Below are positions 4,213-52,854 of a stretch of 64,000 nt of DNA, piece after piece. The stretch is from Clostridiales bacterium. GTDB lineage: Bacteria; Bacillota; Clostridia; TANB77; CAG-508. Every line of letters begins with the position of its first letter. Position 1 is the first letter of the stretch. The notes under the pieces were generated by a model, which saw only the letters and a program-made list of their open reading frames with translations, ran no database searches and was not told where the DNA came from. A program made the position numbers and the translations under genes. The stretch is taken from the NCBI GenBank assembly GCA_003507395.1, contig DNVW01000006.1:98249-162248 (forward strand). Reading direction: 5' to 3'.

Positions 4213-4381
4213 CTAGTTGCAATTTTTAAAAATTAAGGGGTTTGGGGATTTTCCCCATATAAGAATTTGTACGGGAGTATAAATTCAGTGCTGGCTAGAC
4301 ATTACTTTTACTCCCATATTGGTTAATATATAAAAAGAGGATTAAATTACTTTGCTAATTTTTTGCTCTTTTTTAAATTAT

Positions 4382-4735
4382 TTATATAAAAATATACTCT
4401 TTTAATATAATTTCTTCTGCTGTAATTTTATAATTATTCATAAGTTTTGCCCATTCAATATGATTTCTTTTTTTATTTTTTTCGAATAGTCTTTCATCTG
4501 ATTTTTTATAACTTTCCATCAAAGTATTTAATAAATCTTCTGAACTTTTACTTACTGAAATAAGATGATTAGTAAGTTCTTCTTTCATTAAAAGTGAAGT
4601 ATATAGTGCTTTTTTATATTCTTTTAAATAGGCTAATCTCATTCTTCCATATTTGTTTATAATTCCTTTTTTAGTTTCTTTTAAAGTTAAATCTGGCAAT
4701 AAATAATCTCCTTGTTTTGTATAAGTTATTTCCAT
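4382..4735 (-). CDS. tnpV: Transposon-encoded TnpV-family protein
   Basis: MEITYTKQGDYLLPDL...YGRMRLAYLKEYKKALYTSLL...WAKLMNNYKITAEEIILKEYI matches the TnpV pattern of Tn4451-type elements (from memory). It lies immediately downstream of the serine recombinase. Confidence 0.7.
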   Translation of the reverse strand: MEITYTKQGDYLLPDLTLKETKKGIINKYGRMRLAYLKEYKKALYTSLLMKEELTNHLISVSKSSEDLLNTLMESYKKSDERLFEKNKKRNHIEWAKLMNNYKITAEEIILKEYIFI

Positions 4736-4762: not shown

Positions 4763-6553
4763 TTAAATATTTATAATTGTTTTTGGTATTAATAGTAGGT
4801 TATCTACTATGTTATTATCTTCAATATATGGACAATTTATAATTCCATCGTGAAAAAAATGTTGTTTTATTAGTTCCATATATAAAATCAAATCTGCTTC
4901 AGAATATTTATTATCTTCATATTTTTTTGTAGAAAATATGAAGTAATCTTGTTCTAATTTTTCTAATTCTTGCTTGTTGATTTGTTCTTTATATTTAATT
5001 CCAATTTCATTATTATTTAAAATTTCATTAAGATAATTTAAATATTCTTTATTACTTTTAGATATAAATTCATCTGTGAATTTTATATTTTTAATTTCAA
5101 TATTGTAATTTTTATCTCTTGTAATTTCTAAATTTGCTATTAATCTTTGTATTAATTCTTTCTTAGTTTTTCTATTTAAACTATCCCATAAAAATGAAAA
5201 TCCTAGTTTATTTTGAAATAAAATATTGTTATCATCTTGATAATCACAATCTAATTTTTTAAGTAATTCTACTGTATAATCTTTAAAGTCATCATCTGGA
5301 TCTAGTTTGTTTTTCTTTTGGTTTAGTTTATCTATTTCTTTTTTTATTACTTCATTTTTGTGGTTAATTACTTCAACATTTAGGGTAGAACTTAAATATA
5401 AATCTACTAACTTTTTCTCTTGTTGTTTTAATTTTTCAATAGCATTATCTATGTCTTTAATCTCTTTAGTTTTAGTAGAATTACAAACTATAATTTCATT
5501 ATCTGCATCATACATATATCTAGTTAATTCATTTAAAATACGTCCTAGTTTTTGTTCTATTTTATCTGAACTATAATGAAGTCCTTTTGATTTACAATTA
5601 GCATTTTTACAAGTCAAATGATAATAAACTTTTTCTTTTTCAGTTCCACTATTTTTAAAAGAATTAGTAGAAGAAAGTATTACACCACAATCTGGACACT
5701 TAACTATTGAAGTAAATAAATGAATATGTTCTCCATAATTAGAGTGTTTATTTTTCTCTAAATTTGCTCTTGTAACATTCCAAGTTTGTTCATCAATAAT
5801 AGGTTCACAATAGTTATTAACTCTTAAAACGTCTTGTGGTTTTCTTTTATATTTTCCATATTCAAATACACCTATATAAATAGAATTAGTTAATATTTTA
5901 TAGACTCGGTCACTTCGCCATTTACCTTGTTTCAAGTATGAATTATTATCTTTCATAATACTTGCTATGTTTCTTGTAGAATGTCCTTTTTTACATAGTT
6001 CAAATATTTCTTTAACTACTTGTGCCTCAATAGGTTCTATCTCTAAATGTCCTGTTTCTTTGTTTCTAATATAGCCATATGGTGCTTTACTAGGGTGTAT
6101 TTTAGATAATGCCATTTCTTCCATAGCTCGTTTAGTTCTTGCTCCAATTTCTTTTCTTTCTCTTTGCCCAAATACTAAATTCATTCCAAATATCATTTCA
6201 CCATTAGCAGTAGATACATCATAAGGTTCTAGTATTAATTCAATTTTTACATCGTGTTGTTCACAATAATTAAGTAGCCAAAAACCATCATAATTATTTC
6301 TAGTTAATCTATCTACTTTAATTGCAACTAATTTATCTATCTTTTTAGATTTAATATCTTTTAATAATCTTTGCATTTCAGGTCTCATTAAATCTTTTCC
6401 AGAATGTCCTGCATCATTATAGACATCAACTATTAAATAGTAGTTTTTCTCACAATATTCTTTAATCATTCTTAATTGTGAATCAATAGAATAACCATTA
6501 TCTCTTTGATCATCTGTGCTAACTCTTACATATACTGCACATCTATTACTCAT
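4763..6553 (-). CDS. Large serine recombinase (TnpX/TndX/phage-integrase type)
   Basis: N-terminal resolvase catalytic motif AVYVRVSTDDQ, a recombinase domain, a Cys-rich zinc ribbon (CPDCG...C..NC) and a long coiled-coil C-terminus. 596 aa. Confidence 0.9.
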   Translation of the reverse strand: MSNRCAVYVRVSTDDQRDNGYSIDSQLRMIKEYCEKNYYLIVDVYNDAGHSGKDLMRPEMQRLLKDIKSKKIDKLVAIKVDRLTRNNYDGFWLLNYCEQHDVKIELILEPYDVSTANGEMIFGMNLVFGQRERKEIGARTKRAMEEMALSKIHPSKAPYGYIRNKETGHLEIEPIEAQVVKEIFELCKKGHSTRNIASIMKDNNSYLKQGKWRSDRVYKILTNSIYIGVFEYGKYKRKPQDVLRVNNYCEPIIDEQTWNVTRANLEKNKHSNYGEHIHLFTSIVKCPDCGVILSSTNSFKNSGTEKEKVYYHLTCKNANCKSKGLHYSSDKIEQKLGRILNELTRYMYDADNEIIVCNSTKTKEIKDIDNAIEKLKQQEKKLVDLYLSSTLNVEVINHKNEVIKKEIDKLNQKKNKLDPDDDFKDYTVELLKKLDCDYQDDNNILFQNKLGFSFLWDSLNRKTKKELIQRLIANLEITRDKNYNIEIKNIKFTDEFISKSNKEYLNYLNEILNNNEIGIKYKEQINKQELEKLEQDYFIFSTKKYEDNKYSEADLILYMELIKQHFFHDGIINCPYIEDNNIVDNLLLIPKTIINI

Positions 6554-7087: not shown

Positions 7088-7163
7088 TGGAGCTACTGGG
7101 CAGAATCGAACTGCCGACCTACAGGTTACGAATCTGTTGCTCTACCAACTGAGCTACAGTAGC
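7088..7163 (-). tRNA. tRNA-Thr (anticodon CGU), CCA encoded
   Basis: The reverse complement folds as a cloverleaf: acceptor GCTACTG/CAGTAGC, D stem GCTC/GAGC, anticodon loop TTCGTAA, T stem GGCAG/CTGCC with loop TTCGATT. 76 nt. Confidence 0.9.
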
Positions 7164-14340: not shown

Positions 14341-15984
14341 CTATTGTTCAAAGATACTTCCACCAATAAATTCTCTTAACAATGAATTTCTAGGAACTAA
14401 TTCATCAGGAATGTCCTCAAAATAATTTAAAAGATTATATAAATTTTTAGCTTCTGAAAATTCTTTTGATACATTAGTAATTTCTTTTAATAGTGGATGT
14501 GCATGTTTTTTTAACACGCATAATTCGTAAATCAAAGATGTATTAAACATACTATCTGCTTCCTCTTGAAAAGGATAAATATACTTTTCTTCCCCTTTAT
14601 TTACTGAAAGCCATGTTTGCAAAGTATGTAATGCACTATAACTTCTAAATTGATAATCTCTTACAATTCTTCTTATAAGTCTTGTATCTGTTGTTGAAAT
14701 TCTATTATAATAATCTATATTTAATACAGTTAGTGCACTTATATATATTTTATACTTTTGTTCTTTTGGAATTGACTCTGTCAACTTGTCATTTAAACAA
14801 TGGATTCCTTCCATTACTAATACTTCGTCATCTGCTAATTTCATTTTTTCTCCATGATATTCTTTGTTCCCAGTTTTAAAGTTAAATGTTGGAACGTCAA
14901 TTTCTTCTCCATTTAACAATTTAGTTAAATGTTCATTAAATAATTTCAAATCTATTGCCTCTATACATTCAAAATCATATGTCCCATCTGAATGTTTTGG
15001 ATTATCTTTTCTTTCTACAAAGTAATTATCTACAGATATTGTAACTGGTTTCAAACCATTTAATCTTAATTGTATACCTAATCTTTTAGCAAATGTTGTC
15101 TTGCCTGAAGATGATGGTCCTGCTATTAATATTGCTTTTACATTTTTTCTTTCTATTATTTTATCTGCTATATCCGAAATTTTCTTTTCATGTAAAGCTT
15201 CAGCTAAAGATATGATATCTTGTGCTTTTCCTTCTGATATAGCTTTGTTTAGTTTATATACTGTACCTATTCCCAATGTTTTATGAATATCTTCATATTC
15301 GTCTAACGTATTTAATAATTTTTTAGTTTCGTGATAATCATCTAAAGCATTTGGTGAATTTTTAGATGGATATCTTAGTAAAAATCCATCATGATATTTT
15401 ATAACTTCAAATTTTTTTATATATCCTGTACTTACTGGCATTACACCATAAAAATAGTTATAATATTCCTCACAAAAGTATAATGATACTTCATCTTTTT
15501 CTTTGTTTTCTAATTGTAATATTCCTCTTAATGTTTTCTCTTTTTCATAGAATTTAATTGCTTCTTCTTTTGTCATTTCTATCTTTTTTATTTCTAAATC
15601 TTTTTTTACAATATCATTCATTTTTTCACTTAATTTTTTTATAAATTCTTCTGTTATTTCCATATTTTCTATTTCACATAACATAGAATTAGATAATTGA
15701 TAATTTACCGTTAACAAAGCTTTTGGATATAGTTCATATAATGCTTTTGCCATTATATATAATAATCCTCTTATATAAACTCTTCTACCATCTCTTGTTG
15801 TTGTGTCTATTAATTCCACTTTATCTTCTGGCTCAACTTCATAATTTAAACTTTTTACTTCATTGTTACATTTACATGCAATAATATTATTCTCACTATT
15901 TTTAATTTCTTCCTTAAAAATATCTATTACTTTTTGTCTATTTTCTATCTCTAAATTTTTTTGACTTTTATATACTATTTTCAT
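14341..15984 (-). CDS. Nucleoside/uridine-kinase-family protein with an N-terminal TGS-like extension
   Basis: P-loop GPSSSGKTTFAKRL in the C-terminal half. The 547-aa architecture is typical of clostridial long uridine-kinase-like proteins. Confidence 0.65.
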   Translation of the reverse strand: MKIVYKSQKNLEIENRQKVIDIFKEEIKNSENNIIACKCNNEVKSLNYEVEPEDKVELIDTTTRDGRRVYIRGLLYIMAKALYELYPKALLTVNYQLSNSMLCEIENMEITEEFIKKLSEKMNDIVKKDLEIKKIEMTKEEAIKFYEKEKTLRGILQLENKEKDEVSLYFCEEYYNYFYGVMPVSTGYIKKFEVIKYHDGFLLRYPSKNSPNALDDYHETKKLLNTLDEYEDIHKTLGIGTVYKLNKAISEGKAQDIISLAEALHEKKISDIADKIIERKNVKAILIAGPSSSGKTTFAKRLGIQLRLNGLKPVTISVDNYFVERKDNPKHSDGTYDFECIEAIDLKLFNEHLTKLLNGEEIDVPTFNFKTGNKEYHGEKMKLADDEVLVMEGIHCLNDKLTESIPKEQKYKIYISALTVLNIDYYNRISTTDTRLIRRIVRDYQFRSYSALHTLQTWLSVNKGEEKYIYPFQEEADSMFNTSLIYELCVLKKHAHPLLKEITNVSKEFSEAKNLYNLLNYFEDIPDELVPRNSLLREFIGGSIFEQ

Positions 15985-16092: not shown

Positions 16093-16269
16093 TCATATTT
16101 TCCATCCACAACATAGTAATCTACCCCTGTTGCAATCACCGGTTCCTCTCTCCTCTTTTTTACAAGTAGGATAATGGCTGCATGGGTGTTTATCCCATGG
16201 GATCAATTTTTTTTCGGATGGAGGTTTGTAAGTAGGATCTCTATATGCCGGCCGTTTTTTGTTAGACAT
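16093..16269 (-). CDS. Small Cys/Pro/Lys-rich protein (58 aa), unknown function
   Basis: Manual translation: MSNKKRPAYRDPTYKPPSEKKLIPWDKHPCSHYPTCKKEERGTGDCNRGRLLCCGWKI. Locally GC-richer than its surroundings, weak AAGGA RBS, own terminator. Below the ORF-track cutoff. Confidence 0.5.
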   Translation of the reverse strand: MSNKKRPAYRDPTYKPPSEKKLIPWDKHPCSHYPTCKKEERGTGDCNRGRLLCCGWKI

Positions 16270-16358: not shown

Positions 16359-18971
16359 TTATTTCATCTTTTCTTTTATCTTTACTAGTGTATTTAAAGC
16401 ATCAATTGGAGTCAAATTGTTCAAATCCACTTTGTCTAATTCATGTGCTATTTCAGCTAATTTGTAGTTATACATATCTAATTGTCCTGTTGCTACTTTT
16501 TTATTCTCTTTTTCTTGTTTTTGATTGCCGAGTATACTTTTTCTTTCTAACGTTTTTAATATCTCATTAGACCTTTTAGTAACCACTTGTGGGACTCCTG
16601 CTAATTTTGCAACATGAACTCCATAACTTTCATCTGTTCCTCCTGATACTATTTTTCTCAAAAATATAATATCTTCTCCTCTTTCTTTTACTGCGATAGA
16701 ATAGTTTTTTACTCCTTGTATTTTTTCCTCCAACCCTATTAGTTCATGGTAATGTGTGGCAAATAATGTTTTGGCTCCACATTTTTCTTTGTCTGACATA
16801 TATTCAGCCACTGCCCATGCAATAGATAATCCATCATAAGTTGAAGTTCCTCTACCTATCTCATCTAATATAACTAAGCTGTTTGGTGTTGCTTCTTTAA
16901 GTATTGTTGCAACCTCCATCATTTCTACCATAAATGTACTTTGTCCCATGCTTAAATCATCTGATGCTCCTATTCTTGTAAAAATTTTATCTACTACTCC
17001 TAATCTTGCAGAAGTTGCTGGAACAAAACTTCCACATTGTGCCATTAATGATATTAATGCAACTTGCCTCATATATGTAGATTTTCCAGCCATATTTGGA
17101 CCTGTTATTATAGAAAATCTATTATCTTCCTTATCTAAATATGTATCATTATCTACAAATGCACCACTTGGAAGTATTTTTTCTATAACAGGATGTCTTC
17201 CACCTTTTATATCTATTATTCCACTATTATCTACTATGGGCATACAATAATTCATATCTTCTGCTACAGTTGCAAAAGAGTTTAAAACATCAAGTGTTGA
17301 TATTATATCTGCTGTTTTTTGTATTCTTATTATTTGTTTTTCTATTTTTTCTCTTATATCACAAAATGCATTATATTCTAAATTTATTACCTTTTCTTCT
17401 GCTCCAAGTAATTCATTCTCTAATTTTTTTAGTTCCTCTGTAACATATCTTTCTCCGTTTGTCAAAGTTTGTTTTCTTATATATCTATCTGGCACTAAAG
17501 AAATGTTAGATTTTGTTACTTCTATATAATAACCAAATACTTTGTTAAAACCTACTTTTAGTCCTTTTATTCCTGTTTTTTCTCTTTCATCTGCTTCTAA
17601 TTGAATAAGCCAATTTTTTCCATCTGTAGTAGCAATTTTCAATTTATCTATTTCTTCATCATAACCTTTTTTTATTAATCCACCTTCTTTTACGCTAATT
17701 GGTGGTTCTTCTACAATTGCATTATCAATTATTGTATATATATCTTCTAATGTATCCAATTCCTCATATAATTCTTTTAATAAGGTACTATCTGCACTTA
17801 CCATTATTCTTTTTAATTCTGGTAATTGTTTTATTGAATTTTTTAAAGATATTAAATCTCTACCATTTGCATTTCCATAAGAAATTTTTCCCACTAGTCT
17901 TTCAATATCATATACTTTTTTTAGTAAATCTGTTATATCTCCTCTTAATATTAATTTTTCTTTTAGCTCTTTTACTGCATTTAATCTTTTATTTATTCTC
18001 TCCACATCTAAAAGTGGATCATTTAACCATCTTCTTAATCTTCTTCCTCCCATAGATGTAGATGTTTTATCCAATACCCACAATAATGTACCCTTTTTAG
18101 ACTTATCTCTTAATTTTTCTGTTAATTCTAAGTTTCTTCTAGCATTTATATCTAAACACATATATTTTGTATTATTATATAAAGTTATTTTATTAATATG
18201 GTCTAAACTTGTTTTTTGTGTTTCTAAAATATAAGTTAGTAATCCATTTATAGCACAAATGCAAAGTGTTTTATCATTAATGTCTTTTATTTCATTTCCA
18301 TCCTCATTTACAATATTATATTTATTTAATAATTCTTCTGAATTATTAGAAAATTTTTCTTCCTCTTATTTTGATATGTATATTTGAAATCTTTCTCTTA
18401 TTTTTGCAATCTCCTCTGTTGTTGCGTACATTAAGTCATTAACTACAATTTCTGCTGGAGAATATCTAGATATTTCATCTAAAGCCATAGAAAAATTATT
18501 TGTTTCTTTTATTTGTGTTGCTTTAAAATCACCTGTTGAAACATCACATATACTAATTCCAAAGTATATACCATTTTTATATATTGCCATTATATAGTTA
18601 TTTTTCTTTTCATCTAACAAATTACTTTCGATTACAGTCCCTGGTGTTACTACTCTTATAACCTCTCTTTTTACTATTCCCTTTGCTAATTTAGGATCTT
18701 CCATTTGTTCACAAATTGCAACTTTATATCCTTTGCCTATTAAACGTGCAATATATGTTTCTGCTGCATGAAATGGGACCCCACACATTGGTGCTCTTTC
18801 TTCTTGACCACATTCTTTACCTGTAAGTGTTAATTCCAACTCTCTAGATGCTAGAATTGCATCATCAAAGAACATTTCATAGAAATCCCCTAATCTATAA
18901 AATAAAATACAATCTTTATATTCTTCTTTCGTCTTTAGATAATGTTGCATCATTGGCGAATATTCTGCCAT
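16359..18971 (-). pseudogene. mutS: DNA mismatch repair protein MutS interrupted by one in-frame TAA (18366-18368)
   Basis: ORFs 18366..18998 (mismatch-binding domain, GDFYEMF) and 16359..18161 (clamp/ATPase, GPNMAGKST) share a frame, and all 69 codons between them are open. The likely start [11 protein letters not shown] is at 18971, after GGAGG. Confidence 0.85.
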
Positions 18972-19006
18972 TTTCTTTTCCTCCATTTCGCTCTTCATTT
19001 AACTGT

Positions 19007-20410
19007 CTAGTCGTTTACTTCTCCCTTCAAATACCACATATGTTCTGATACTATTTTTAAATTTATTATTTGTCCTATTAAATTATCATTTCCTTTAAAT
19101 ATTACTACTTTATTAGAATCTGTTCTACCTGTTAACATATCTTCATTGTTTTTGCTTTTTCCCTCTACTAATACTTTTTGTATTGTATTAATATATTTCT
19201 TATTTTTCTCTTCAATCTGCTCTTCTACTAATTTTTTTAATTTTTCAAATCTTATATGTTTTTGTTCCTCTGGGACTTGGTTTTGCATTCTATCTGCTGG
19301 TGTTCCAACCCTTCTTGAATATATAAACATATATACTTGTTCAAAATTCACTTTCTTTACTACATCTAATGTATCTTCAAATTCTTCATCTGTTTCTCCA
19401 GGAAATCCTACTATTATATCTGTTGAGAGAGTTAAGTTTGGTATTTCTTTTTTCATTTTTTCTACTAATTCTAAATATTGCTGTTTTGTATATTTTCTAT
19501 TCATTTCTTTTAATACTTTGCTATTTCCAGATTGCAATGGTAAATGTATTAACTTACATACTTTATCACATTTTTTTATTGCCTGTATAACATCTTCTGT
19601 AAAATCTTTTGGATGAGGAGAAATAAACCTAATTCTTTCTATTCCTTTTATTTTATTAACAGCATAAAGTAATTTCGCAAAAGATGTAATTTTTTCATTT
19701 TCATTTTCTAATACTTCATTTCTCATATAAGAATTAACATTTTGTCCTAGCAAAGTTATTTCTTTATATCCCTTGTCTGCTAATTCTCTTACTTCATTAA
19801 TTATATCTTCCGGTTTTCTACTTCTTTCTCTACCTCTAACATATGGTACAATACAGTAACTGCAAAAATTATTGCATCCGTACATAATTGTAACTGATGC
19901 TTTTATATTATCATTTCTTTTTATTGGCAATCCCTCTATTATTTCCCCATCTATATCTATAATATCTTCTATTCTTTTTTTGTTTAAAATTACATTGTAT
20001 AAATCTTGTGGAAATTTGTGTAATGTATGTGTTCCAAATACTATATCAAAAAATGGATAACTTTTTTGTAATTTATCTACAATGTGTTTTTCCTGCATCA
20101 TACATCCACCAATAGCAATTATAGTTCCTCTTTTTTCCTTTATTTTTTTTGCCTCACCCAATTTTCCAAATAGTTTGTCTTCAGCATTTTCTCTTACACA
20201 GCAGGTGTTAAATACTATTAAATCTGCTTCTTCAATATTTTCTGTATTTGTATAACCCATTTTTTCTATCATTCCAGAAAGTTTCTCCGAATCATTTTCG
20301 TTCAACTGGCATCCCATAGTTAAAATAATATATTTTGGATTTTTATTCAAATTTATTTTATTTATTTCTTCTATATATTCTTTTTGATTTTCTCTATTAA
20401 TTACTTCCAT
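19007..20410 (-). CDS. miaB: tRNA-i6A37 methylthiotransferase MiaB
   Basis: Radical-SAM CNNFCSYC motif, N-terminal UPF0004 cysteines, C-terminal TRAM-like domain. The miaB-mutS order is conserved. Confidence 0.9.
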   Translation of the reverse strand: MEVINRENQKEYIEEINKINLNKNPKYIILTMGCQLNENDSEKLSGMIEKMGYTNTENIEEADLIVFNTCCVRENAEDKLFGKLGEAKKIKEKRGTIIAIGGCMMQEKHIVDKLQKSYPFFDIVFGTHTLHKFPQDLYNVILNKKRIEDIIDIDGEIIEGLPIKRNDNIKASVTIMYGCNNFCSYCIVPYVRGRERSRKPEDIINEVRELADKGYKEITLLGQNVNSYMRNEVLENENEKITSFAKLLYAVNKIKGIERIRFISPHPKDFTEDVIQAIKKCDKVCKLIHLPLQSGNSKVLKEMNRKYTKQQYLELVEKMKKEIPNLTLSTDIIVGFPGETDEEFEDTLDVVKKVNFEQVYMFIYSRRVGTPADRMQNQVPEEQKHIRFEKLKKLVEEQIEEKNKKYINTIQKVLVEGKSKNNEDMLTGRTDSNKVVIFKGNDNLIGQIINLKIVSEHMWYLKGEVND

Positions 20411-25559: not shown

Positions 25560-25626
25560 AAATAATTCCTCCTTTTCTTTTGTTACATTAATATATATTA
25601 TTTAAATTAATGTTAAAATTTAGTAT

Positions 25627-26355
25627 CTACTTACTCGTCGCTTGATATCTCTTTATAGCATCTTCTATATTGCCATCAAATACTATTTTTCCTGTTTCCA
25701 TAACCATTCCTCTTTTGCAAAATTCTGCCGCCATTCCCACTGAATGAGTAACAAATAGTAATGTAACTCCTTCATTTTTTATTATTTCATTGACTTTTTT
25801 ACTACATTTTTTTCTAAAATTTTCATCACCCACGCTAAGAGCCTCGTCTACTATTAAAATTTCAGGTTTAATATTTACATTAATCGAAAATCCTAATCTC
25901 GTCTTCATTCCGCTTGAATATGTTCTAATTGGTTGATCAATATATTCTTCAATTTCTGCGAAGTCAATTATTTCCTGCTCTAATTCTTTTATTTCATTGT
26001 TTTTTAATCCTAATAGTTGACCTTTCAAATATATATTTTCTCTTCCTGTGAATTCAGGGTCAAATCCTGAAGTAAGCTCTAATAACGCGCTTACTCTTCC
26101 TTTCACTGAAATTTCTCCATCTGTTGGATAGCACACTTCTGTTATCATTTTTAATATAGTTGATTTTCCTGCACCATTTCTTCCAAATATAGCTACTGAT
26201 TCTCCCTTTTTTATATTAAATGATACATTATTTACAGCGTGCTTTTCTTTATAATTTTTGATTTTAAATAGTGTTGAAATTAGTCTCATCTTGTCATTTT
26301 TAAAAAGCTTATATGTTTTAGTAACATTTTTAAATTCAATTACATTTATATTCAT
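25627..26355 (-). CDS. tagH: Teichoic-acid/polysaccharide export ABC transporter ATP-binding protein
   Basis: Walker A GRNGAGKST, ABC signature YSSGMKTRL, Walker B ILIVDEA. Adjacent to an ABC-2 permease. Confidence 0.85.
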   Translation of the reverse strand: MNINVIEFKNVTKTYKLFKNDKMRLISTLFKIKNYKEKHAVNNVSFNIKKGESVAIFGRNGAGKSTILKMITEVCYPTDGEISVKGRVSALLELTSGFDPEFTGRENIYLKGQLLGLKNNEIKELEQEIIDFAEIEEYIDQPIRTYSSGMKTRLGFSINVNIKPEILIVDEALSVGDENFRKKCSKKVNEIIKNEGVTLLFVTHSVGMAAEFCKRGMVMETGKIVFDGNIEDAIKRYQATSK

Positions 26356-26382
26356 CTATACGATTCCCCTTATCTAATAACT

Positions 26383-27189
26383 TTATAAAACGTCTGGTAT
26401 TTCTTTTCTTAGTTTCTTATAAACTATAATTGTTACCATCAATAGTAATGTTGTTACTATAATAAAATATAATAATCTCTTAGGTTGTTCCCAAATCCAA
26501 TTATGATATATAAAGCAATTTCTAAATCCATTTGTCAAAAAAGTTACTGGATTTATCATTAGTAATTTTTTTAACCATGATATATTTATTGTGTTTGCAT
26601 CCCACAATATTCCTGATAACCAAAATACAGCTGTTACCATTGATTTCACCAAATTACCAAAATCCTTGCTTATTGCTGATAATAGTGAGGCAAACAAACT
26701 CCAAATTGTGCAAAAGATAAACATAAAAAGCATATAAATTGGCATTTGTAAAACGTATATTGTTGGAGTATAATTCATTGCAATAAATATTGATATAACA
26801 ATTACCATTAATATGCAATGTATCATAAACTTTGAAATACTTGTAAATGTCGGTATTGTTGAGATAGGAAATTTCATCTTAGTTACTAGATAGCTGTATT
26901 TTCTTATTGTATCTACGCCCGATGTCAGCATATCACTTATATAGAACCATGGCACAACTCCTGAAATTAACCATAAAAAATACGGAAAACCTGACATTTT
27001 ACTTGGAGCTCTTAGTCCTATGGTAAATGCAAACCAATACACAAATATTGTTACCGTAGGTTTAATAATAGCCCAAGACCACCCCAATGCTGCTCCACGG
27101 TAAGTTTTCGCTAAGTCAGCCTTAGCTAATTTAAAGATTTGTTCTCTATATATACAATGTTCTTTAATTATATTTATTAATTCTTTCAC
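26383..27189 (-). CDS. tagG: Teichoic-acid export ABC-2 permease
   Basis: Six-TM ABC-2 type permease immediately upstream of tagH. Confidence 0.8.
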   Translation of the reverse strand: MKELINIIKEHCIYREQIFKLAKADLAKTYRGAALGWSWAIIKPTVTIFVYWFAFTIGLRAPSKMSGFPYFLWLISGVVPWFYISDMLTSGVDTIRKYSYLVTKMKFPISTIPTFTSISKFMIHCILMVIVISIFIAMNYTPTIYVLQMPIYMLFMFIFCTIWSLFASLLSAISKDFGNLVKSMVTAVFWLSGILWDANTINISWLKKLLMINPVTFLTNGFRNCFIYHNWIWEQPKRLLYFIIVTTLLLMVTIIVYKKLRKEIPDVL

Positions 27190-27216
27190 AATTTTTCTCC
27201 TTTAAAAAAAGTACTA

Positions 27217-27633
27217 TTACTCTTTCTCTATTTTATTAATGTATTCGTCAACTTTTTTTCTAAATGCTGTTGAAGACCATGTGAATGGCCTTTTAGTATA
27301 CCTTACCTCACAACATTTTTTTAATTTTTCAAATCTATCATCACCTTGCCAGTCACTTCCCATAGTTAATATATCTATGTTATATTTTTTTATATCTGAT
27401 TCCTTTTGGTTCCAATCCTTTTCTGGTATTACCTCATCAACATATTTTATTGAACTTAACACTATTTTTCTTTCTTCAAAACTTAGATATGAACTTTTAT
27501 GTTTAATTGCATTAAATTCATCCGTTGACAATCCAACTATTAGGTAATCTCCCATTTCTTTTGATTCCTTCAAATGTTGTATATGTCCTGGTGTAATCAA
27601 ATCATATGTTCCATATGTTATAACTTTTTTCAT
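27217..27633 (-). CDS. tagD: Glycerol-3-phosphate cytidylyltransferase
   Basis: MKKVITYGTYDL..PGH...DYLIVGLSTDEFN...IKYVDEVIPE is close to B. subtilis TagD as I recall it. Confidence 0.88.
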   Translation of the reverse strand: MKKVITYGTYDLITPGHIQHLKESKEMGDYLIVGLSTDEFNAIKHKSSYLSFEERKIVLSSIKYVDEVIPEKDWNQKESDIKKYNIDILTMGSDWQGDDRFEKLKKCCEVRYTKRPFTWSSTAFRKKVDEYINKIEKE

Positions 27634-28901
27634 TATACTGCCTCCTTAAATATTTCTTTTATAACTCTTTCACTTGCATTCCCATCATCTAGGTAATTAT
27701 ATTTTTTATTAAAATCCTCATACTTTCTTTCATATTTTGGAAACTCTGTTTCAATATTGATTATACATTTCTCCAATTCCTCTTGTGTCCTAGTTATTGG
27801 TCCTGGTAGCTCATCAAGTGATATATAAAAATCTCTCAATCTGCTTTGGTATAAATCATAATCATACATATAAAACACTATTGGTCTTTTTAAATTTGCA
27901 AAATCAAAAAATACACTGGAATAATCGGTCATTATAATATCACTGACTAAATATAGTTCATTGATTTCATCATATCTTGCAACATTTATAACAAAACCTT
28001 CATATTTGCTTAAATCTATACTATTGGCTATAAAATAATGCGGACTAAATAGGACTACATATTCATCACCTATAGCTTTTCTTAATCTATCAAAATCAAT
28101 TTGTAATTCATATGTATATCCAATTCCTGAGGTATGTTGGTTATCTCTAAACGTTGGTAAATAAAAAATTACCTTTTTATTTATCGGTATCTTTAATTTT
28201 TCCTTTATCAGAGTAATATCTTTTTGTGTCTTATTAAATAAAAAGTCGTTTCTTGGATACCCTTCTTCTATTATAATATTTTCTTTATTAAGTTTCTTCA
28301 AGTTAAAAGCAGAAATGAATTTCTCTGTGCAGTATTTGCTTGGTGAAATAAAATAATCAAATCTTTTAGCATCAATATCATTTCTTTTTCTTATTTCTTT
28401 AATTGTATTAAGTACAGAACCATCGACCTCAATATCACATCTTAATTTTTTTATAGGTGTTCCATGCCAACATTGAACATACACTTGTCCTTTTTTCTTG
28501 GTTAGACTTTCTTCCATAATGGAATTAACAATCCAATATTTAGCTATTGAACAATATTTATAATACTCTTTAGATTTTGACTTTACAATTGTAGTTCTTT
28601 TATCTTCTTTTACATCATGAATATCAGTATCCAAAAACGCCCATACAAATTTAAAATTTTTAAATTGTGGCATTGACAGCATTTTTTCATATATTGCCTT
28701 TGGAGAACATGTATAGTTTCTTCCACCGAATGCTTCAAACAGTATTGTTTCATCATCCATTTTATATTTTATTTTATACCATATGTATCTTATTTTTTTT
28801 ATTACTAAGTTTATGTTGCGACACATTTTTCTAAATAATATATTTCTTTTTGAAATATCAACCAACATCTTTTTCATTTTGTAAATTACCTGTTTTATCA
28901 T
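27633..28901 (-). CDS. CDP-glycerol glycerophosphotransferase family protein (TagB/TagF-like)
   Basis: LPTFRD and MTDYSSVFFDF motifs. 4-nt overlaps with both neighbours. Confidence 0.8.
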   Translation of the reverse strand: MIKQVIYKMKKMLVDISKRNILFRKMCRNINLVIKKIRYIWYKIKYKMDDETILFEAFGGRNYTCSPKAIYEKMLSMPQFKNFKFVWAFLDTDIHDVKEDKRTTIVKSKSKEYYKYCSIAKYWIVNSIMEESLTKKKGQVYVQCWHGTPIKKLRCDIEVDGSVLNTIKEIRKRNDIDAKRFDYFISPSKYCTEKFISAFNLKKLNKENIIIEEGYPRNDFLFNKTQKDITLIKEKLKIPINKKVIFYLPTFRDNQHTSGIGYTYELQIDFDRLRKAIGDEYVVLFSPHYFIANSIDLSKYEGFVINVARYDEINELYLVSDIIMTDYSSVFFDFANLKRPIVFYMYDYDLYQSRLRDFYISLDELPGPITRTQEELEKCIINIETEFPKYERKYEDFNKKYNYLDDGNASERVIKEIFKEAV

Positions 28902-30082
28902 AGTGCCTCCTCTATTAGTTTCATCATTTTTTGTGTACTATTTCCATCTAATTGTGATATGTATTTTTTTCTAAATGCATTATATGATGTAATATCATAT
29001 TGATTATTGTCTATTATCTTGATAATATCTTTTATATTTTTATATACGCAATTCTTTAACTCCTTAAATAAATCTATATTTAAGCCGTTTTCTTTTTCGT
29101 ATTTTTCATAATCATATACATATAAAAGTAATTTCTTATTCAATAAGCAAGCATCCATTGTTAGTGCTGAATAATCTGTAATAACATAATCCATTACTCT
29201 TAGTACATCATAAGTTAAAAACTCTTCTCTATTGATGCATATAACATTAGTTTTATTTATGTAGTTATTGTTTTTAGGGTGAAATGTTATAATCAAATTG
29301 TATTTTTCAGTATCTATGGCACTTATTACTTCCTCTATGTTATCTGTTCCATCACTTCTGAATGTTGGCGAATATAAAATATTTGTTTTTTTCTTAAGTT
29401 GAGGATACTTATCAAATAACTTTTTTACCATACTTTTATTTTCTTTTAATAAATAATCTGCCGAAGGCGTTCCAATATCCTTTACTTTTTCTATTGGAAC
29501 ATCAAATGCATGTGCGAAAAACAAATTCATCTCTTTTGAACCACTTATAACATAATCGTAATTTTTATGCATACATAAAGCTATAGCTATTTTTTTATTT
29601 ATTCCATCTTCATATCCAATTGATTGATATCCAAATTTCTTTATGGCTCCTAATGCATGCCATAGTTGGATAATTTTTGTATTTTTCTTATGTTTAAGTA
29701 TACTTACTACAATGTTATATCCATCAATTATAATAACTTTTGAAGAAGCAATTTGTTTCATTTGAGAATATAAGTTAAAGTAGTATTCTACACCTAATTT
29801 TATTTCTTTTAAAGATACTCTTTTCTTTTTTTCGTTTCTTATCATTGCATTTATACCTGTAGACACCTTTTTACATATTATGCTATACTTTATATTTCTT
29901 TTATCCAATTCTTCTATAAGCATTTTAAAATTGAGTGGCACTTCATTTGATTGTCTACTTAAAAAGAATACATTATTTTTTTGTTTATTAAATATTTTTA
30001 TAAAAAAATATATGCTCTTTAGATGCCATTTAAATATAGTTATTGCACCTAATAAAAAAACGTCTTTAAAAAAGCTCATCAA
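28898..30082 (-). CDS. CDP-glycerol glycerophosphotransferase family protein (TagB/TagF-like)
   Basis: YSPTFRSDG and ITDYSALTMD motifs. Confidence 0.75.
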   Translation of the reverse strand: MMSFFKDVFLLGAITIFKWHLKSIYFFIKIFNKQKNNVFFLSRQSNEVPLNFKMLIEELDKRNIKYSIICKKVSTGINAMIRNEKKKRVSLKEIKLGVEYYFNLYSQMKQIASSKVIIIDGYNIVVSILKHKKNTKIIQLWHALGAIKKFGYQSIGYEDGINKKIAIALCMHKNYDYVISGSKEMNLFFAHAFDVPIEKVKDIGTPSADYLLKENKSMVKKLFDKYPQLKKKTNILYSPTFRSDGTDNIEEVISAIDTEKYNLIITFHPKNNNYINKTNVICINREEFLTYDVLRVMDYVITDYSALTMDACLLNKKLLLYVYDYEKYEKENGLNIDLFKELKNCVYKNIKDIIKIIDNNQYDITSYNAFRKKYISQLDGNSTQKMMKLIEEAL

Positions 30083-30112
30083 AATTTTCTCCTTTTTGTT
30101 ATTGATACATAG

Positions 30113-32374
30113 TTATTTTAATAAATTAATGATTTTTCTTGCAATTATTTCTCTAGCATACTTCAAGGTTATTATATCATAATTCTTTCTATATGTTTCA
30201 ATGTTCAAATCTTTTACTCCTAATATTTTATTTAAAAGTTCTTCATTAGAGTGGTAATATGCCTCTGGAATCTCCTTAAGCACTTCTAATGATCCCACAT
30301 TTTCCTTTGCAAAAACAGGTCTTCCATTTAGAATGCTTTCTATATATGTCATTCCAAAAGATTGGTTGTTGCAAAAATCTACTACACAAGTACTTTCTTT
30401 AATCACTTTGTTTGGAGCATTAGTAACCCCGTTATATGAAATAATATCATCCAAATCATTTTTTAATATTTCATTAACAAAGCTATCCGCATAATCTCCT
30501 TGCCCGTATATATTTAATATAAGATTTTTAATTTTCTTATCTTTTAAATACTTTCCAAAATCTATAATATTTTTTATATCTTCCTCTCTATCTTTTGAGA
30601 GTCTTACTAATGAAACCACTTTTATTCTTCCATCAAATTCTGTTTGTATTTCTTTTTTTGATATCATTGCTCTACTTTCTAACGCATTTCCAATAATTTC
30701 AGATTTTTCGTAATTGTCGTAATTAAATATGTTTTTATACGACTCCCTACTTGCTTTTGTCACAAAAATGCAATTTTCAAGTTTTTCCTTTTTTATCTGC
30801 TCCATTAATCCTGGATAATATGTGTTTATCACTTTGGCATCAGTATGAAAAAAATACAATTTATTTATTACTTCCTTATTAGCAAACTTTTTAACAAATA
30901 AATGTATACTCTCTCTAGTAGATATAATTGTTTTGGAATTTGTTGATTCCAAATACTCTTTCAATTTCTTGCCAATGTATGGAATCAAATTTTCTTTGTT
31001 AATATCATAGTTAAAATAGTAATAATCTTTTTTATTCCTATATAGATGTCTTTTTATTCTATTTAACCATTTATTCTGCTTTTTATTGTAAAAGGCATTT
31101 ATCGTTAATCCGTATGGAAGCAAATAATTTGATTCTGTCATTTTTAAAGACAAAAGTTCTACTAAATATCCCTCTTCCAACATGGCTTCTGCTAAAGCTT
31201 TCGTAGCACTTACTGTTCCACCTTTTCCAGTAAAATTATATCCCAGTATTGTAATTTTATTTAACTGTAGTTTTCTAAAGTACTGGTACATTTTTTTTAT
31301 ATGTTCACCTTTTAATATATAGTCATAGTCTATATGCTTTGGAAGTCTATCTCTAAAAAATAGGTTTATATTATATTTTTCACTTATTATTGTTTCTATT
31401 AACTCGTCTACATATCTTATACTATACTTTTCTATTTCTTCTAATGGGTAATATGTATCTCTATGTTTAAAATATTCTTCTGCATCTGGTTGAAACAGTA
31501 TTACTGGTATATTTAATAATGTGCAATCAAATCCTACAGATGAGTAATCTGTAATCAGTAAATCACATGTTGCAAGTTCCTTCATTAAATTCATTTCGTT
31601 AGGTTTAACTAATTCTATATTATCTGTTCCTTTTATAGATTCTTTAATTGCACAAACCTTTTTATCATCATAAAATTGATGCATACATAATTTGATATCA
31701 ACCTCATTGTCTTTAATATATTTTAAAAATCTCGCATCTTTAAAAACTCTATTTAATTTGTTTAAAAATTTCTTTGTCTCAAAATTATCTCCAAAATATT
31801 CTCTCCAAGTTATAAAAAATAAGATTTTTTTTCTTTTAAGTTTTTGTTTTTTCTTCTCCATATAGTATTCAACAGTTTTTTTATATCTTGGATGAAATTC
31901 TCCATAATATAACTGATAATCATTGAAGTCATTTTCCATCTTGAAAATTTCTTTTATATCAGGATTATAATAAAGGAATCTAAACATATTATTATAATAT
32001 GAATTGCCCTTATACCCTATTTTTTTTATTCCTAGTGTTCCATGTTGTAAATATATTAATGGTTTTTTTATTATTAATTTAATTGGTTTTCCTAGTATTT
32101 CTTCTGGCAAAATGTCCCTATATGACAACGTTACAAAATACATATCTGCTTTTTTAAATAATTCCATATGTTTTAATGAATTTTTCCATACTATTTTATC
32201 TTGCTTGTCTTGTGGCAACGTTTTATAAAAATCTAGGTTTTGCTTATTTCTGGATAATATAAAATACTTGTTAATTTCATCTTTTACATTGCAAACTTCA
32301 TCCCAAAAGTAATACGAATTATTATTATATGTGTTTCCTAAATTTTCTCCAAAAAGCCATATGAATTTTTTCAT
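30113..32374 (-). CDS. Fusion protein: N-terminal CDP-glycerol glycerophosphotransferase domain + C-terminal GT4-type glycosyltransferase domain
   Basis: N-terminal half has LITDYSSVGFDC. C-terminal half begins ITILGYNFTGKGGTVSATKALAE and ends with the GT4-like ...QSFGMTYIESILNGRPVFA. Confidence 0.7.
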   Translation of the reverse strand: MKKFIWLFGENLGNTYNNNSYYFWDEVCNVKDEINKYFILSRNKQNLDFYKTLPQDKQDKIVWKNSLKHMELFKKADMYFVTLSYRDILPEEILGKPIKLIIKKPLIYLQHGTLGIKKIGYKGNSYYNNMFRFLYYNPDIKEIFKMENDFNDYQLYYGEFHPRYKKTVEYYMEKKKQKLKRKKILFFITWREYFGDNFETKKFLNKLNRVFKDARFLKYIKDNEVDIKLCMHQFYDDKKVCAIKESIKGTDNIELVKPNEMNLMKELATCDLLITDYSSVGFDCTLLNIPVILFQPDAEEYFKHRDTYYPLEEIEKYSIRYVDELIETIISEKYNINLFFRDRLPKHIDYDYILKGEHIKKMYQYFRKLQLNKITILGYNFTGKGGTVSATKALAEAMLEEGYLVELLSLKMTESNYLLPYGLTINAFYNKKQNKWLNRIKRHLYRNKKDYYYFNYDINKENLIPYIGKKLKEYLESTNSKTIISTRESIHLFVKKFANKEVINKLYFFHTDAKVINTYYPGLMEQIKKEKLENCIFVTKASRESYKNIFNYDNYEKSEIIGNALESRAMISKKEIQTEFDGRIKVVSLVRLSKDREEDIKNIIDFGKYLKDKKIKNLILNIYGQGDYADSFVNEILKNDLDDIISYNGVTNAPNKVIKESTCVVDFCNNQSFGMTYIESILNGRPVFAKENVGSLEVLKEIPEAYYHSNEELLNKILGVKDLNIETYRKNYDIITLKYAREIIARKIINLLK

Positions 32375-32392
32375 TTTATTGTTCTCCCCTTT

Positions 32393-33397
32393 TTATATAA
32401 AGGCTCTTAACCTTTTCATATCTTCTCCATACATTATTCCGATTCCAACATTATCGTTTATATCATATCCACTGTAAAATATATAATATTTTTCATTTTC
32501 ATATAATATAGAGCTTCTGTATAGTCCTCCAGCATCCCAGTTTTTGGTAGATGGCGTTATAATTTCTATTGGTGTTTCCCATTTTATGTTATCACTTGAG
32601 TATGAATAATAAACACTCATCTTTTCTCTATAGTTAATATTTTTGTATGCACACGCAACAAGTTCATATATTTTCTTATCATTATTATAAATTACATCTA
32701 TATGCCATGTTCTGTATCCATTTGCATATTTGATTTCTAACAAACGTGGTTTTGTAACTGTATCTCCAGATTTTTCAATATAATACACATTTTTTTTGTC
32801 AACATACCAAATCTTATACTTCCCTTTTTCATATATAATTGCCGGACTGACATAATCTAGCTTTTTCCTAACAGAAGATTTAAGAAAAACTGTTTTGGGC
32901 GTCCAATTTCTTCCATCTGTAGAAGTCTTAGTAAAAATAGTCACCTCTCCTTTTTCATCATCTACATATCTCCAAAATATTTCTAATTGATCTAAATCCT
33001 CATTGTATACAAGGTGTGTATCTGAGTTGTAATGTTCTTCATCAGCGTTTTCTGGTATATCTAATGGGTTTTTTATTCCTTCTGGTTCCTCCCATGTTTT
33101 TATATCATTGCTCACATTAACTACAGGATTTTCCTTGGTTTCATCCTTTTTTGGATATGGGGTAAAAGACATCCAATATTTATATCCATTCCACTCTTTT
33201 TCAAAAGAAATTACTTTTGGATGATATCCCTGATTATTATTCAATGTTGTATTCATTGTTATTTTATTGCTGTTCACTATATTATCGTATTTAATATTTC
33301 TGAAGATAACACTTGATGTAATCAACACAATTGAAAATATTAAAAACATTAAGATATAACTGTTTTTTATCCTATCTATTATATTACTTTTTTTCAT
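32393..33397 (-). CDS. Membrane-anchored beta-propeller-like protein (Asp-box/BNR-like, possible glycosidase), family unassigned
   Basis: N-terminal TM helix. Asp-box-like TSTDGRNWTP and YSSDNIKWETP. GYHPKVISFEKEWNGYKYWMSFTPYP block. Confidence 0.4.
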   Translation of the reverse strand: MKKSNIIDRIKNSYILMFLIFSIVLITSSVIFRNIKYDNIVNSNKITMNTTLNNNQGYHPKVISFEKEWNGYKYWMSFTPYPKKDETKENPVVNVSNDIKTWEEPEGIKNPLDIPENADEEHYNSDTHLVYNEDLDQLEIFWRYVDDEKGEVTIFTKTSTDGRNWTPKTVFLKSSVRKKLDYVSPAIIYEKGKYKIWYVDKKNVYYIEKSGDTVTKPRLLEIKYANGYRTWHIDVIYNNDKKIYELVACAYKNINYREKMSVYYSYSSDNIKWETPIEIITPSTKNWDAGGLYRSSILYENEKYYIFYSGYDINDNVGIGIMYGEDMKRLRAFI

Positions 33398-33443
33398 TAC
33401 ATTCCCTCTTTATATAATTTTATTTATAATATCATATGTATTT

Positions 33444-34529
33444 TTATTTTTCAACTTTCTTTTTGTTATCTCTATTTTTTTCCATTTTCTTTATGTCTTC
33501 ATGATATTTTTTTGAATTTTCATACCAGGCAGAACAGTTTAAATCTTGTTTTCTGTTTGGTATGTTATATTTTTCTTGAATTATTTTTCCTATGTATTTG
33601 CTTACTTTTTCAGCTCCATATACATTCAGATGATCTCCTCCATCAGCGGAATCTGTATTCCAGTCAAACCCAAAATCTTTATAGTTTAAATTCAGATCTA
33701 TGAAATCTAATCCCTTATTGTTTGCAAACTCCTGTGTTTTTTCACTTAAGTCATATGACCATGATTCTGCTGATGGTAATTCTATTAGCAGTAATTCAAT
33801 ATTATTTTTTTTGCATGTTGCTATTATTTTATTTAAATAGAAATAACACTTTTCTCCTATTTTTTCCTTTGAATCATCTTTTTTCATATATTCGTTATCT
33901 TTAACATACGCTTTTGTATCCACACTAATATCCATACCTTTGTACGCAAACTTCTTGCTTTCAAATGCTTTTTCAAAATCAACATCTTCCAACTCTGCCC
34001 ACCTTGAGTGAAACCTTGCTATTGGAAAAATATAACTTAATATTTCTTCCTTTTTATTTTTAAATACTGGATCTGTAATAGCTCTAATTTTATTTATACT
34101 CAGTTTCATGTTGTCAAATGTCTTTCTGTAGTTACTTTCACTACTTTGTGTTTCGTTAAATGCTGAATCCATATTTAATACAATCAACCTTGGTGTTTGA
34201 GTTTTTATGCATTCCTCTAATAAATAATATTCTGTCCACATTCTCTGTCCAGATGTTGAGTAATTGTAACTTGTTATACCATATTCATCCCACATTGTAA
34301 TTGGAGATATTCCTCTATATACATCACTATTTCCCATAAATATAACATCCAAGGAATTTTTGGGTTCTTCATAAAAGCCTCCAACAATGTATGACATTCT
34401 ATTATCTTCTGGCGTTATCCATTTTGGAATCAGTATTTTAGTTAAAACATGCAAAATTATAATTCCAATTATACCAAAACATATCACTTTTACTATTATA
34501 CTCATTGTTTCTTTCTTGAACTCCGTCAT
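33444..34529 (-). CDS. SGNH/DltD/AlgJ-like O-acyltransferase accessory protein
   Basis: N-terminal TM helix, block-I-like VIFMGNSDVY, C-terminal DGGDHLNVYGAEKVS. Immediately downstream of the MBOAT gene. Confidence 0.5.
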   Translation of the reverse strand: MTEFKKETMSIIVKVICFGIIGIIILHVLTKILIPKWITPEDNRMSYIVGGFYEEPKNSLDVIFMGNSDVYRGISPITMWDEYGITSYNYSTSGQRMWTEYYLLEECIKTQTPRLIVLNMDSAFNETQSSESNYRKTFDNMKLSINKIRAITDPVFKNKKEEILSYIFPIARFHSRWAELEDVDFEKAFESKKFAYKGMDISVDTKAYVKDNEYMKKDDSKEKIGEKCYFYLNKIIATCKKNNIELLLIELPSAESWSYDLSEKTQEFANNKGLDFIDLNLNYKDFGFDWNTDSADGGDHLNVYGAEKVSKYIGKIIQEKYNIPNRKQDLNCSAWYENSKKYHEDIKKMEKNRDNKKKVEK

Positions 34530-34560
34530 CTGTCCTTCTTATCCTCCTTTTTGCAATAAC

Positions 34561-36156: not shown

Positions 36157-36169
36157 TGCCTCCGTCCTT

Positions 36170-36394: not shown

Positions 36395-36454
36395 TCATTC
36401 TCCCTCTTTCATTATTAAATTATTTTTAAAATTTGTAATCTTTCCTATCAATGT

Positions 36455-37963: not shown

Positions 37964-37977
37964 TTTTTCCCCCTTCT

Positions 37978-42274: not shown

Positions 42275-42836
42275 AGTCTCTTAATATTTTTCTTACATAG
42301 TTATTTGTTTCTTTAAATGGTATATTTTCTATATTAGTGCCATCTTTTTTTATTATTCCTTTTTGTATCCACTCTGTTACATTTCCTATTCCCGCATTAT
42401 ATGCTGCTAAAGTCATATTAAGATTATTGTCATATCTTTCTAAAAGTTCAGATAAATATTTTGCTCCTAATTTAATATTAATCTCTGGATTGTATAATTC
42501 TTCTTTTGAATTTATTTTTTCGTCAATATTGTCTGAAACCTCTAATGCTGTGTTTTCCATAAGTTGCATTAATCCTATGGCATTGCTAGATGAAGTGGCA
42601 TCTACTTTAAAATTACTTTCTGTTTTTATAACAGCAAAAACAAGCAACGGGTCCAAATTATAATCTGTAGCATATTTATAAACATATTCCGAATAATCTT
42701 TTACATATATTTTTTTCAAAATTATATCTTGTATATTAATCAGTTTTAAAAAAATTATTAGTGCTAAAAATATAAATAAATATATAAAACTTTTTCTCAC
42801 TATTTTTTCCTTCTGTGGTTCATTCATAAATATCAA
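42246..42836 (-). CDS. Lytic transglycosylase (SLT domain) with N-terminal membrane anchor
   Basis: IKTESNFKVDATSSSNAIGLMQL...AAYNAG. Confidence 0.8.
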   Translation of the reverse strand: MIFMNEPQKEKIVRKSFIYLFIFLALIIFLKLINIQDIILKKIYVKDYSEYVYKYATDYNLDPLLVFAVIKTESNFKVDATSSSNAIGLMQLMENTALEVSDNIDEKINSKEELYNPEINIKLGAKYLSELLERYDNNLNMTLAAYNAGIGNVTEWIQKGIIKKDGTNIENIPFKETNNYVRKILRDYEIYREIYE

Positions 42837-44300
42837 AATCTCCTATCGTTCCAGTCTTATTTTTGTTTTCTTTAACATAGTTAATAACTTGCAACGGTGT
42901 TTGCCAATTTTTATGATATTTATCTTGTAATATCAAATATTTAACATCTTTTGAACTTTCTATCTCTGCTATTATCTTTTCTTCCCCATCTTCTCCTAGA
43001 TTACCTTTTAATAATAAATCATAATTTTTATTATATTTATCAATTGGTATCATATATAAAGCTGCAGAAGCATCTAATATTTTTACATCATCTTTTGATG
43101 TTAATATAAAAGTATCCACTTTTTCTATATTCTCTTCTAATTTTTCGTCTACTATAATATATTGATAGTGTGCTAAATCAGAATAGTTGTGCTTATTAAC
43201 TAGGTAAGTTCCTGAATTGATAATAACATATGCTAACAAAGAAACATATATTGTAGCTTTCACATAATAAAAACAAAATCTATACATTTTGTTTTCTATT
43301 ATATTTGTTATCTTACTTGATAATAAATACGACATAAGTACTATTGTCGGTATTGCTCCTATATAAAAATGTATTTTGTCTGAAATTGGAAATGCAACTA
43401 CAAACATAGCTAATCCATATATTAATAAAAAATATAGTGCCTTATCTTTATCTCTTTTTATTATAATTTTATATATTACTATACCAAAAGTTATTGGAAC
43501 CAATAATGCGAATAATCCCGTTATATCTAATTTTAATAACTTTTTATATGGTATATAGTTACTAAATTCTGATACTCCTTTGATAGAATAATTAACAAAA
43601 TCATTAAAGCAATTATTATAGATTAAATATATTATCATAAGACTTATTAATATTAGAATTGGCATTAGCCTAAATAAAAAGCTTTTCAAATATTCTTTTA
43701 AATCTTGTTTATTTTTTATGAAAAATATTTTATTTGCTAACATAGCAATAATCACCAGTATTCCTGTGTTTTGCTTCAGCAATATAGCAATTCCCGCCAT
43801 AATTCCTAAAAGTATATCTTGCTTAATATTGGCTTTTATTATATTTTTGTCTTTTTTATAAAATTTAATCTCATTATATATTATTAGTAATACTATTAGT
43901 AAAGTAGCAAAGTTATAATCTAAGCAATAATATTCTAACATCAGTAAGGTTATTATACCAGTAATAAGAACTGCTAATTCTTTTTTAACATCCAATATTT
44001 TAATATTTTATAAACCAATACCATTATTGTTGCACACAAAAATCCTGCTAGAATTCTGGTTATTATTATTTCATTAAATGTATATTTTAATATGATCCCA
44101 GAAATAATTGGTAATAGTGGCATCTGTAACATGTTAAAGTCTTTATATGGTATTAATCCATCTGCAATATTTCTAGCGAAATTGTAATTCCATATTTCAT
44201 CTAAATTATTTATTGGCTTAGCTAAAATACTAAAAAATATTATTATAAATGCTATTATAAACAATATCAATTCATCTTTTTTCTTCATTTTTAATCTCAT
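42820..44300 (-). pseudogene. GT-C-fold membrane glycosyltransferase (ArnT/PMT/YfhO-like), frameshifted in a homopolymer
   Basis: ORFs 43974..44300 and 42820..43995 overlap in different frames. Adding one A to the A6 run (T6 at 43981-43986 on the plus strand) gives the continuous ...KYWMLKKELAVLITG... A first-loop LDEIWNY motif and about 12 TM helices are present. Confidence 0.6.
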
Positions 44301-52156: not shown

Positions 52157-52854
52157 TTATACTCCTATACCTTTTTCTTTTTGTTGGTTCTTTAATCTTC
52201 TCCAATTGTAACTTCCATATATGTCATTTATTAATAACAATATAGGACCTACTAAAACCGATATTAATTCTATTTGACCACTTATAATAGGAATTAACCA
52301 TAATGTTATTATCACTAGATCATTTGCAATATAGCAAAATAGTGATAATTCACTTCTTCTTGCCTCAAAATAACTAGCTAGGACACTTGTTACAACTGAC
52401 ATTGTACTTATTACTAATAAATCTGTATTAAATGCTTTTAATATGAAGTAATAAATCCAAAATAACACTAATTGAGAAAGTAATGCTATAGTTATTTCTT
52501 TTTTTGATAGAGAACTTATAATAACTGTATCTTCTTCTTTATCTTGATGTCTTAACCAAGATATAATACCTATTATCATTATAGGAAATGTTAAAAATGC
52601 TGTAATAATTAATTCCCCATAATAGCCTTGATTATATGATACTATTCCATAAAAAAACACACTAACAACCCTACAAAATAGCATTCTACTTTTCCTTTTG
52701 ACATTAATAATGCTGTAATTAAATAAAGTGATGTATATAATGTATCAATTACAGTCCCATTAAAAATAATAGATGATATTATTGATGTTAATAATCCACA
52801 TATTAAAAATGACTTTTCAAACTTATTCCAATCTTCAAAATATTTCTTTATCAT
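52157..52854 (-). pseudogene. pnuC: Nicotinamide riboside transporter PnuC-like, frameshifted
   Basis: ORFs 52642..52854 and 52157..52684 overlap in different frames. ...MSKGKVECYFVGLL joins to SVFFYGIVSYNQGYYGE... with a 1-nt shift around 52660-52672. Confidence 0.55.

Follow-up and report, generated by a model that had tools for sequence, protein, structure and literature searches.

We find that the mutS gene of the window (the whole stretch of 64,000 nucleotides that was analysed) is interrupted by a premature TAA codon. We consider it highly likely that this represents a genuine and recent CAA to TAA change in one strain lineage, that the lineage is null for MutS and hence predicted to be a mismatch-repair-deficient natural mutator, and that the absence of mutL from the surroundings of the gene is unrelated. 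In the mechanism that we propose, a C-to-T transition would recently have turned a glutamine codon of mutS into a stop in one strain lineage. Translation would end after 210 residues, within the connector domain, and the mismatch-binding domain would thereby be detached from the domains of the lever, the clamp and the ATPase. Ahead of the 600-codon open reading frame (ORF) that follows, there are 68 codons free of any start and no evident ribosome-binding site, the predicted outcome being a MutS-null and thus mismatch-repair-deficient natural mutator strain. The host is an uncultured, AT-rich, small-genome Clostridia species of the human gut, 'Clostridium sp. CAG:798', with relatives that include CAG:492 (order TANB77). 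CAG-492 is a genus in this uncultured, reduced-genome order (PMC11680825).

The interrupted mutS frame

The mutS (MutS1) frame occupies 16359..18998 on the minus strand and spans 879 codons with one stop inside, as determined from the ORF list, from translation in one frame and from profile scores. An open frame of this length cannot have arisen by chance in DNA of 27% GC. The premature TAA (18366..18368, minus strand) takes the place of Gln211 in the 879-codon frame; the same residue is Gln202 in 870-aa numbering, which follows the gene calls on conspecific contigs (ENA and Logan) that start mutS at the ATG at 18971. On the plus strand, base 18368 is A in the window versus G in intact strains. 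Two minus-strand ORFs result, one of 210 aa (18366-18998) and one of 600 aa (16359-18161). Translation of 16359-18998 gives ...YMCLDINARRNLEL... as the residues flanking the internal stop, identical to the string reported in an earlier note on this DNA. That note had claimed that one TAA breaks an otherwise open mutS frame and splits the mismatch-binding part from the clamp and ATPase part; the one-frame translation, with its single internal stop, bears out the first point and the Pfam domains of the two fragments bear out the second.

More specifically, the N-terminal fragment (18369..18998, minus strand) holds the mismatch-binding domain I, with its GDFYE motif, and the first half of the connector domain II; Pfam profiles match it as MutS_I and as positions 1-70 of the 133 of MutS_II. 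The second half of domain II is encoded by 68 sense codons (18162..18365, minus strand) that belong to neither ORF and among which no ATG, GTG or TTG start is present. The C-terminal ORF (16359..18161, minus strand) encodes domains III, IV and V in 600 aa, with Walker A (GPNMAGKST) and Walker B (DEIGRGT) motifs, and is matched by MutS_III, MutS_IV and MutS_V, while the read-through protein contains all five domains. The stop thus separates GDFYEMF on its upstream side from GPNMAGKST on its downstream side. Near the C-terminus of the 600-aa ORF is a QLDMY stretch, which we take to be similar to the beta-clamp-binding motif. No Shine-Dalgarno-like purine run is visible ahead of the ATG of this ORF.

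To place the gene among MutS families, the intact conspecific allele (P0001) was scored against curated models and reached 1040.5 bits with TIGR01070 for mutS1 (cut-off 641.7) and 1099.3 bits with NF003810 (PRK05399; cut-off 480). The N-terminal fragment alone stays below threshold with the latter model (249.5 bits), and the C-terminal fragment scores 796.7 bits. The mutS2 model yields 173.7 bits versus a cut-off of 400, no Smr domain is matched and domain I is present. The curated scores, the ordered domains I-V with the Phe-X-Glu, Walker A and Walker B motifs, and the exclusion of MutS2 all identify a MutS1 gene. As in bacterial MutS1 at large, represented here by the E. coli structures 1E3M (639 bits) and 7OU2, the five domains align from end to end (639-643 bits); unlike them, the window protein is cut within connector domain II, where the alignment places the stop, and mutL does not follow the gene. 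The window strain does not encode a single uninterrupted MutS1 polypeptide, because of the TAA at 18366-18368, and its mutS is, judged from sequence, a pseudogene of a MutS1 gene. For the strain that carries the stop, we infer a loss of MutS function and a mutator phenotype.

mutS across the species and mutL across the clade

Among the best 120 database matches, 120/120 are full-length (868-879 aa) and 99-100% identical, and one of them is named 'Clostridium sp. CAG:798'. Glutamine stands at the position of the stop in 5/5 retrieved conspecific sequences (...ISKQEEEK...), and hundreds of conspecific contigs encode an intact MutS. Between 14223 and 20347, base 18368 is the sole difference between the window and one intact contig (L001, from JGI, 515,926 bp), and the lesion is therefore a single transition, C to T on the coding strand, converting CAA to TAA. 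The closest intact alleles, those of L001 and L016, show no other mutS difference from the window. Comparison with five relatives gives dN/dS values of 0.11-0.18 for mutS, indicating purifying selection in the clade. In another sample of the same species (L015:8333-10944, ERZ28646090), a second, independent disruption of mutS was observed: an A4 run at codon 234 has lost one base, which leaves products of 240 aa and 600 aa in a gene that is otherwise identical.

Directly upstream of mutS lies miaB (19007..20410, minus strand; UPF0004, Radical_SAM and TRAM domains), as in the canonical clostridial miaB-mutS-mutL-miaA order. Unlike in that order, mutL is absent downstream, both in the window and in 23/23 close relatives. 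Directly after mutS, in the place where other Clostridia have mutL, the window has a conserved, Cys-rich ORF of 58 aa (16093..16269, minus strand; …CSHYPTCKKEERGTGDCNRGRLLCCGWKI), which has no match to a known family. Gene calls also place it in the conspecific contigs examined, both intact and TAA-bearing, with a length of 57 aa in one of them. Next comes a protein of 547 aa (14341..15984, minus strand) whose N-terminus is ThrRS-N-like and which contains a uridine-kinase/PRK-like domain. No MutL match was obtained among the window ORFs or within 10 kb past the ends marked by UvrA and FtsY, covering about 84 kb. To compare gene orders, species-representative genomes were scanned, yielding 23 loci at 67-79% MutS identity and 26-31% GC (including Clostridium sp. 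CAG:492) and about 55-57 distant loci at 50-57%; the best match was 79% identical and none was conspecific. With the MutL HMM, mutL was found within 10 kb of mutS in 0/23 of the clade loci (67-79% MutS identity). In about 55 distant Clostridia it lies downstream of mutS and nearly always adjacent to it (about 1.1 kb away in L103). These gene orders indicate that mutS and mutL are unlinked clade-wide, and that this arrangement is ancestral in the AT-rich clade. Tetranucleotide similarity failed to separate species inside the clade. The ORF list and the MutL profile search agree with the earlier note that a 58-aa ORF and a kinase-like gene, and not mutL, follow mutS, and what it says of miaB-mutS-mutL as the usual order in clostridia is borne out by the distant Clostridia examined. 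The note had also read the missing mutL neighbour as a sign of repair loss; this part falls, since the arrangement is the clade norm, with mutL elsewhere in relatives, and therefore says nothing on repair loss in the window strain. An absent mutL neighbour in this clade should accordingly not be scored as gene loss.

Metagenome contigs were further scanned for mutL with a strict AT-codon motif pattern, a miss of which is uninformative, and 51 loci were recovered, none of them identified as the mutL of the window species. The mutL genes of AT-rich gut bacteria share the N-terminus MG(N/K)IVLLD(D/E)LTINKIAAGEV, and none of those recovered by the scan adjoins mutS. In both groups with called neighbour genes, miaA directly follows mutL, and the most prevalent group is that of Clostridium sp. 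CAG:452. One scan locus (L121) matches a clade mutS locus (L043) at 89% nucleotide identity over 1.27 kb, which puts the mutL of that relative some 11 kb upstream of its mutS. Full-length mutL is retained by relatives. Separately, in the L121 contig, from human gut, the mutL frame (L121:2720-5069) breaks at ATT CGG A, a TT-CGG-A context like that of the split genes described next; this is a single contig at 3.7x coverage, where an assembly error is possible. The many mutL frameshifts of another locus (L108) were rejected as real changes, being homopolymer errors typical of long-read assembly.

In two related AT-rich gut species, mutL is split at an identical site, ...ACA GAA CTT CGG ATA.... 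Species A, which probably differs from the window species, has fragments of 181 + 461 aa (L158:10001-12065; also L115, L125, L131, L134, L135, L139 and L159-L167), and its commonest C-terminal fragment occurs on 461 contigs. Species B, with a MutL that shares 75% identity with the species A protein, has fragments of 191 + 493 aa (L191-L196:2436-4482). A +1 shift at the split site restores T-E-L-G-Y-I-E-D, the exact sequence of intact relatives. For species A, with 16 loci compared, pN/pS amounts to 0.02 in frame 0 upstream of the site and, downstream of it, 0.085 in the +1 frame and 3.1 in frame 0. CGG is rare in species A, accounting for 6/198 Arg codons. The split site resembles the known +1 frameshift sites CUU-AGG-C of Ty1 and CUU-UGA-C of prfB. 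With its CUU ahead of the rare CGG, it is a candidate for programmed +1 ribosomal frameshifting in a mismatch-repair gene.

These observations bear on a reading by neutral decay, in which mismatch repair was already dispensable or broken (for example, with mutL lost or crippled) and mutS knock-outs drift freely. We regard this as clearly unlikely. The two independent mutS disruptions within the species would fit it, but the vast majority of conspecific contigs carry an unbroken mutS, and the gene is under purifying selection. Likewise, no mutL is found in about 84 kb around mutS, but relatives keep a full-length mutL and the search pattern for mutL is so strict that a miss says nothing. The split mutL of two related species could be taken as crippled genes; against this, they are themselves under strong purifying selection, with pN/pS of 0.02 and 0.085 for the two parts in their respective frames.

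Decoding, recovery and age of the stop allele

Bypass of the stop, whether by TAA being read through or recoded or by the two fragments reassembling, would preserve MutS function. The gene is otherwise unchanged relative to L001 and L016 and the 600-aa ORF starts with ATG, which would suit such a bypass, but a pristine sequence is also the expectation for a recent mutation. A protein begun at that ATG would miss the 68 codons of domain II that lie between it and the stop, and no ribosome-binding site is visible before it. Moreover, TAA terminates 31 of the 44 ORFs counted and is thus an ordinary stop codon, indeed the main genuine one, in the window, and the Gln codon of the relatives at this site is CAA, which speaks against both stop-codon reassignment and programmed read-through. 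We know of no functional split MutS1, and we judge a bypass to be exceedingly unlikely.

The allele was recovered repeatedly. The exact truncated product of 201 aa, counted from the second ATG, is on record from 14 contigs and the 600-aa fragment from 7. TAA was read in the DNA of ERR636349, in both its ENA MEGAHIT assembly and its Logan assembly, and also in the metagenome-assembled genome GCA_902461835.1, in SRR6487922, SRR28454918, SRR28455118, SRR28454821 and SRR27539041, and in ERZ27250446. ERR636349 belongs to PRJEB7369, the project used for a study of Swedish travellers (PMC5725903). Two further contigs (L008 and L011) also gave the 201-aa product but were rejected as TAA alleles: both stop at the variant base itself, which is C in them, and we count these as chance ends. 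An assembly or consensus error, with the genome truly CAA and TAA an artefact of one assembly, might be suspected where only one base differs and the source is probably a metagenome-derived assembly, but it is extremely improbable given that the same TAA comes from different assemblers (MEGAHIT k119/k127 and Logan) and from at least six separate run accessions, and that hundreds of other assemblies call CAA there, which argues against a systematic error at the site.

Over 1.3-21.8 kb, every TAA contig matches the window at 100% identity, including at sites where intact strains differ. Because of this identity, the allele marks one strain lineage and is neither a species trait nor a recurrent hotspot. 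Comparison of mutS across conspecifics accordingly finds intact alleles with Gln (CAA) and a change limited to one haplotype. The suggestion in the earlier note that the lineage may be repair-deficient thus needs narrowing: the stop is real and MutS is predicted to be non-functional, but this applies to one strain lineage in a species that is otherwise intact.

A mutational signature is associated with mismatch-repair deficiency (PMC11695600), and an excess of transitions and homopolymer indels would be expected on the lineage of a natural mutator. The comparison covered about 34 kb of comparable sequence, made up of a 19-kb core and a further 14.7 kb. Relative to 11 intact strains, the core contains 13 private SNPs of the window lineage, nine of which fall within one 46-bp recombination tract, and no private indels. 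Comparison of the additional 14.7 kb with ten intact strains yielded, as clean changes private to the window, one transition and two deletions of 1 bp, although one of these deletions proved to be present in other strains too. Over the total of about 34 kb, this leaves five clean private SNPs (four of them transitions) and one private A5-to-A4 deletion, numbers of low statistical power. In 10.9 kb compared with the nearest relative found (L184, SRR12459475), with L172 used for polarisation, 2 changes fall on the window branch and 3 on the sister branch. A clear excess of substitutions or homopolymer indels is thus not seen in about 34 kb, at low power. The nonsense mutation looks recent, which is the simplest reading of the missing footprint.

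Two genes of the window are broken by single-base deletions. The first encodes a conserved hypothetical protein of 493 aa (42820..44300, minus strand) and has lost one base of an A5 run at about 44002. The gene is whole in 21 other strains, the nearest relative L184 among them, and is split into 108 + 373 aa in L181 (ERZ27250446), the contig that also has the TAA; the deletion appears specific to the TAA lineage. The second is a pnuC-like NMN transporter gene (52157..52854, minus strand), in which the loss of one base at about 52669 leaves 70 + 175 aa in place of the 232 aa of other strains. The deletion allele occurs on 23 contigs, some of them from strains that differ from the window, and was for this reason rejected as a mutator scar; for the same reason the pnuC deletion is older than the TAA.

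Natural mutators and other features of the window

Natural mutS-null mutator alleles are known from isolates of E. coli and Salmonella and from Pseudomonas aeruginosa in cystic fibrosis. The TAA allele is a further example of this well-known type of allele: as in those cases, a single loss-of-function lesion is found in a minority of strains while the gene is under selection in the others. It differs from them in that the host is an uncultured gut commensal known from metagenomes, with a phenotype predicted from the gene, and in that the allele occurs in several runs on one identical haplotype. One could go further and propose that the TAA haplotype is a persisting repair-null lineage passing from host to host and shared by several people, in a clade with unlinked mutS and mutL and, in two sister species, a mutL dependent on a +1 frameshift at a conserved CUU-CGG-A site; we hold this to be rather unlikely. 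If true, natural modulation of the mutation rate in reduced-genome gut bacteria would become directly testable. Mutators speed adaptation and gene decay, and the putative mutS-null strain described here comes from a prevalent uncultured commensal. Alleles of this kind can be read straight from metagenomes, and the present one provides a concrete haplotype for tracking in time series. Annotation should mark this mutS as the pseudogene of an ordinarily intact gene, and not take it as evidence that the species as a whole lacks repair.

Several other features of the window were observed. A gene for a large serine recombinase (4763-6553) adjoins a tRNA-Thr CGT (7088-7163), and in relatives a TnpV gene lies beside the recombinase. 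This region may be an integrated element, and it occurs in other strains too. An Rfam scan of the window returned one tRNA and nothing else. An intergenic stretch of 165 bp (4228-4391), for which there is no Rfam match, is 82% identical to L115:7144-7303 of the split-mutL species. Finally, about 14 kb of the window (25613-39994) carry genes for teichoic-acid/glycan biosynthesis, namely Glyphos_transf, CTP_transf_like, ABC transporter, MBOAT, AMP-binding, epimerase and GT2 genes. Most other strains are without this stretch and have different sets of glycosyltransferases at the same place, and these strain differences point to a strain-variable surface-polysaccharide island.
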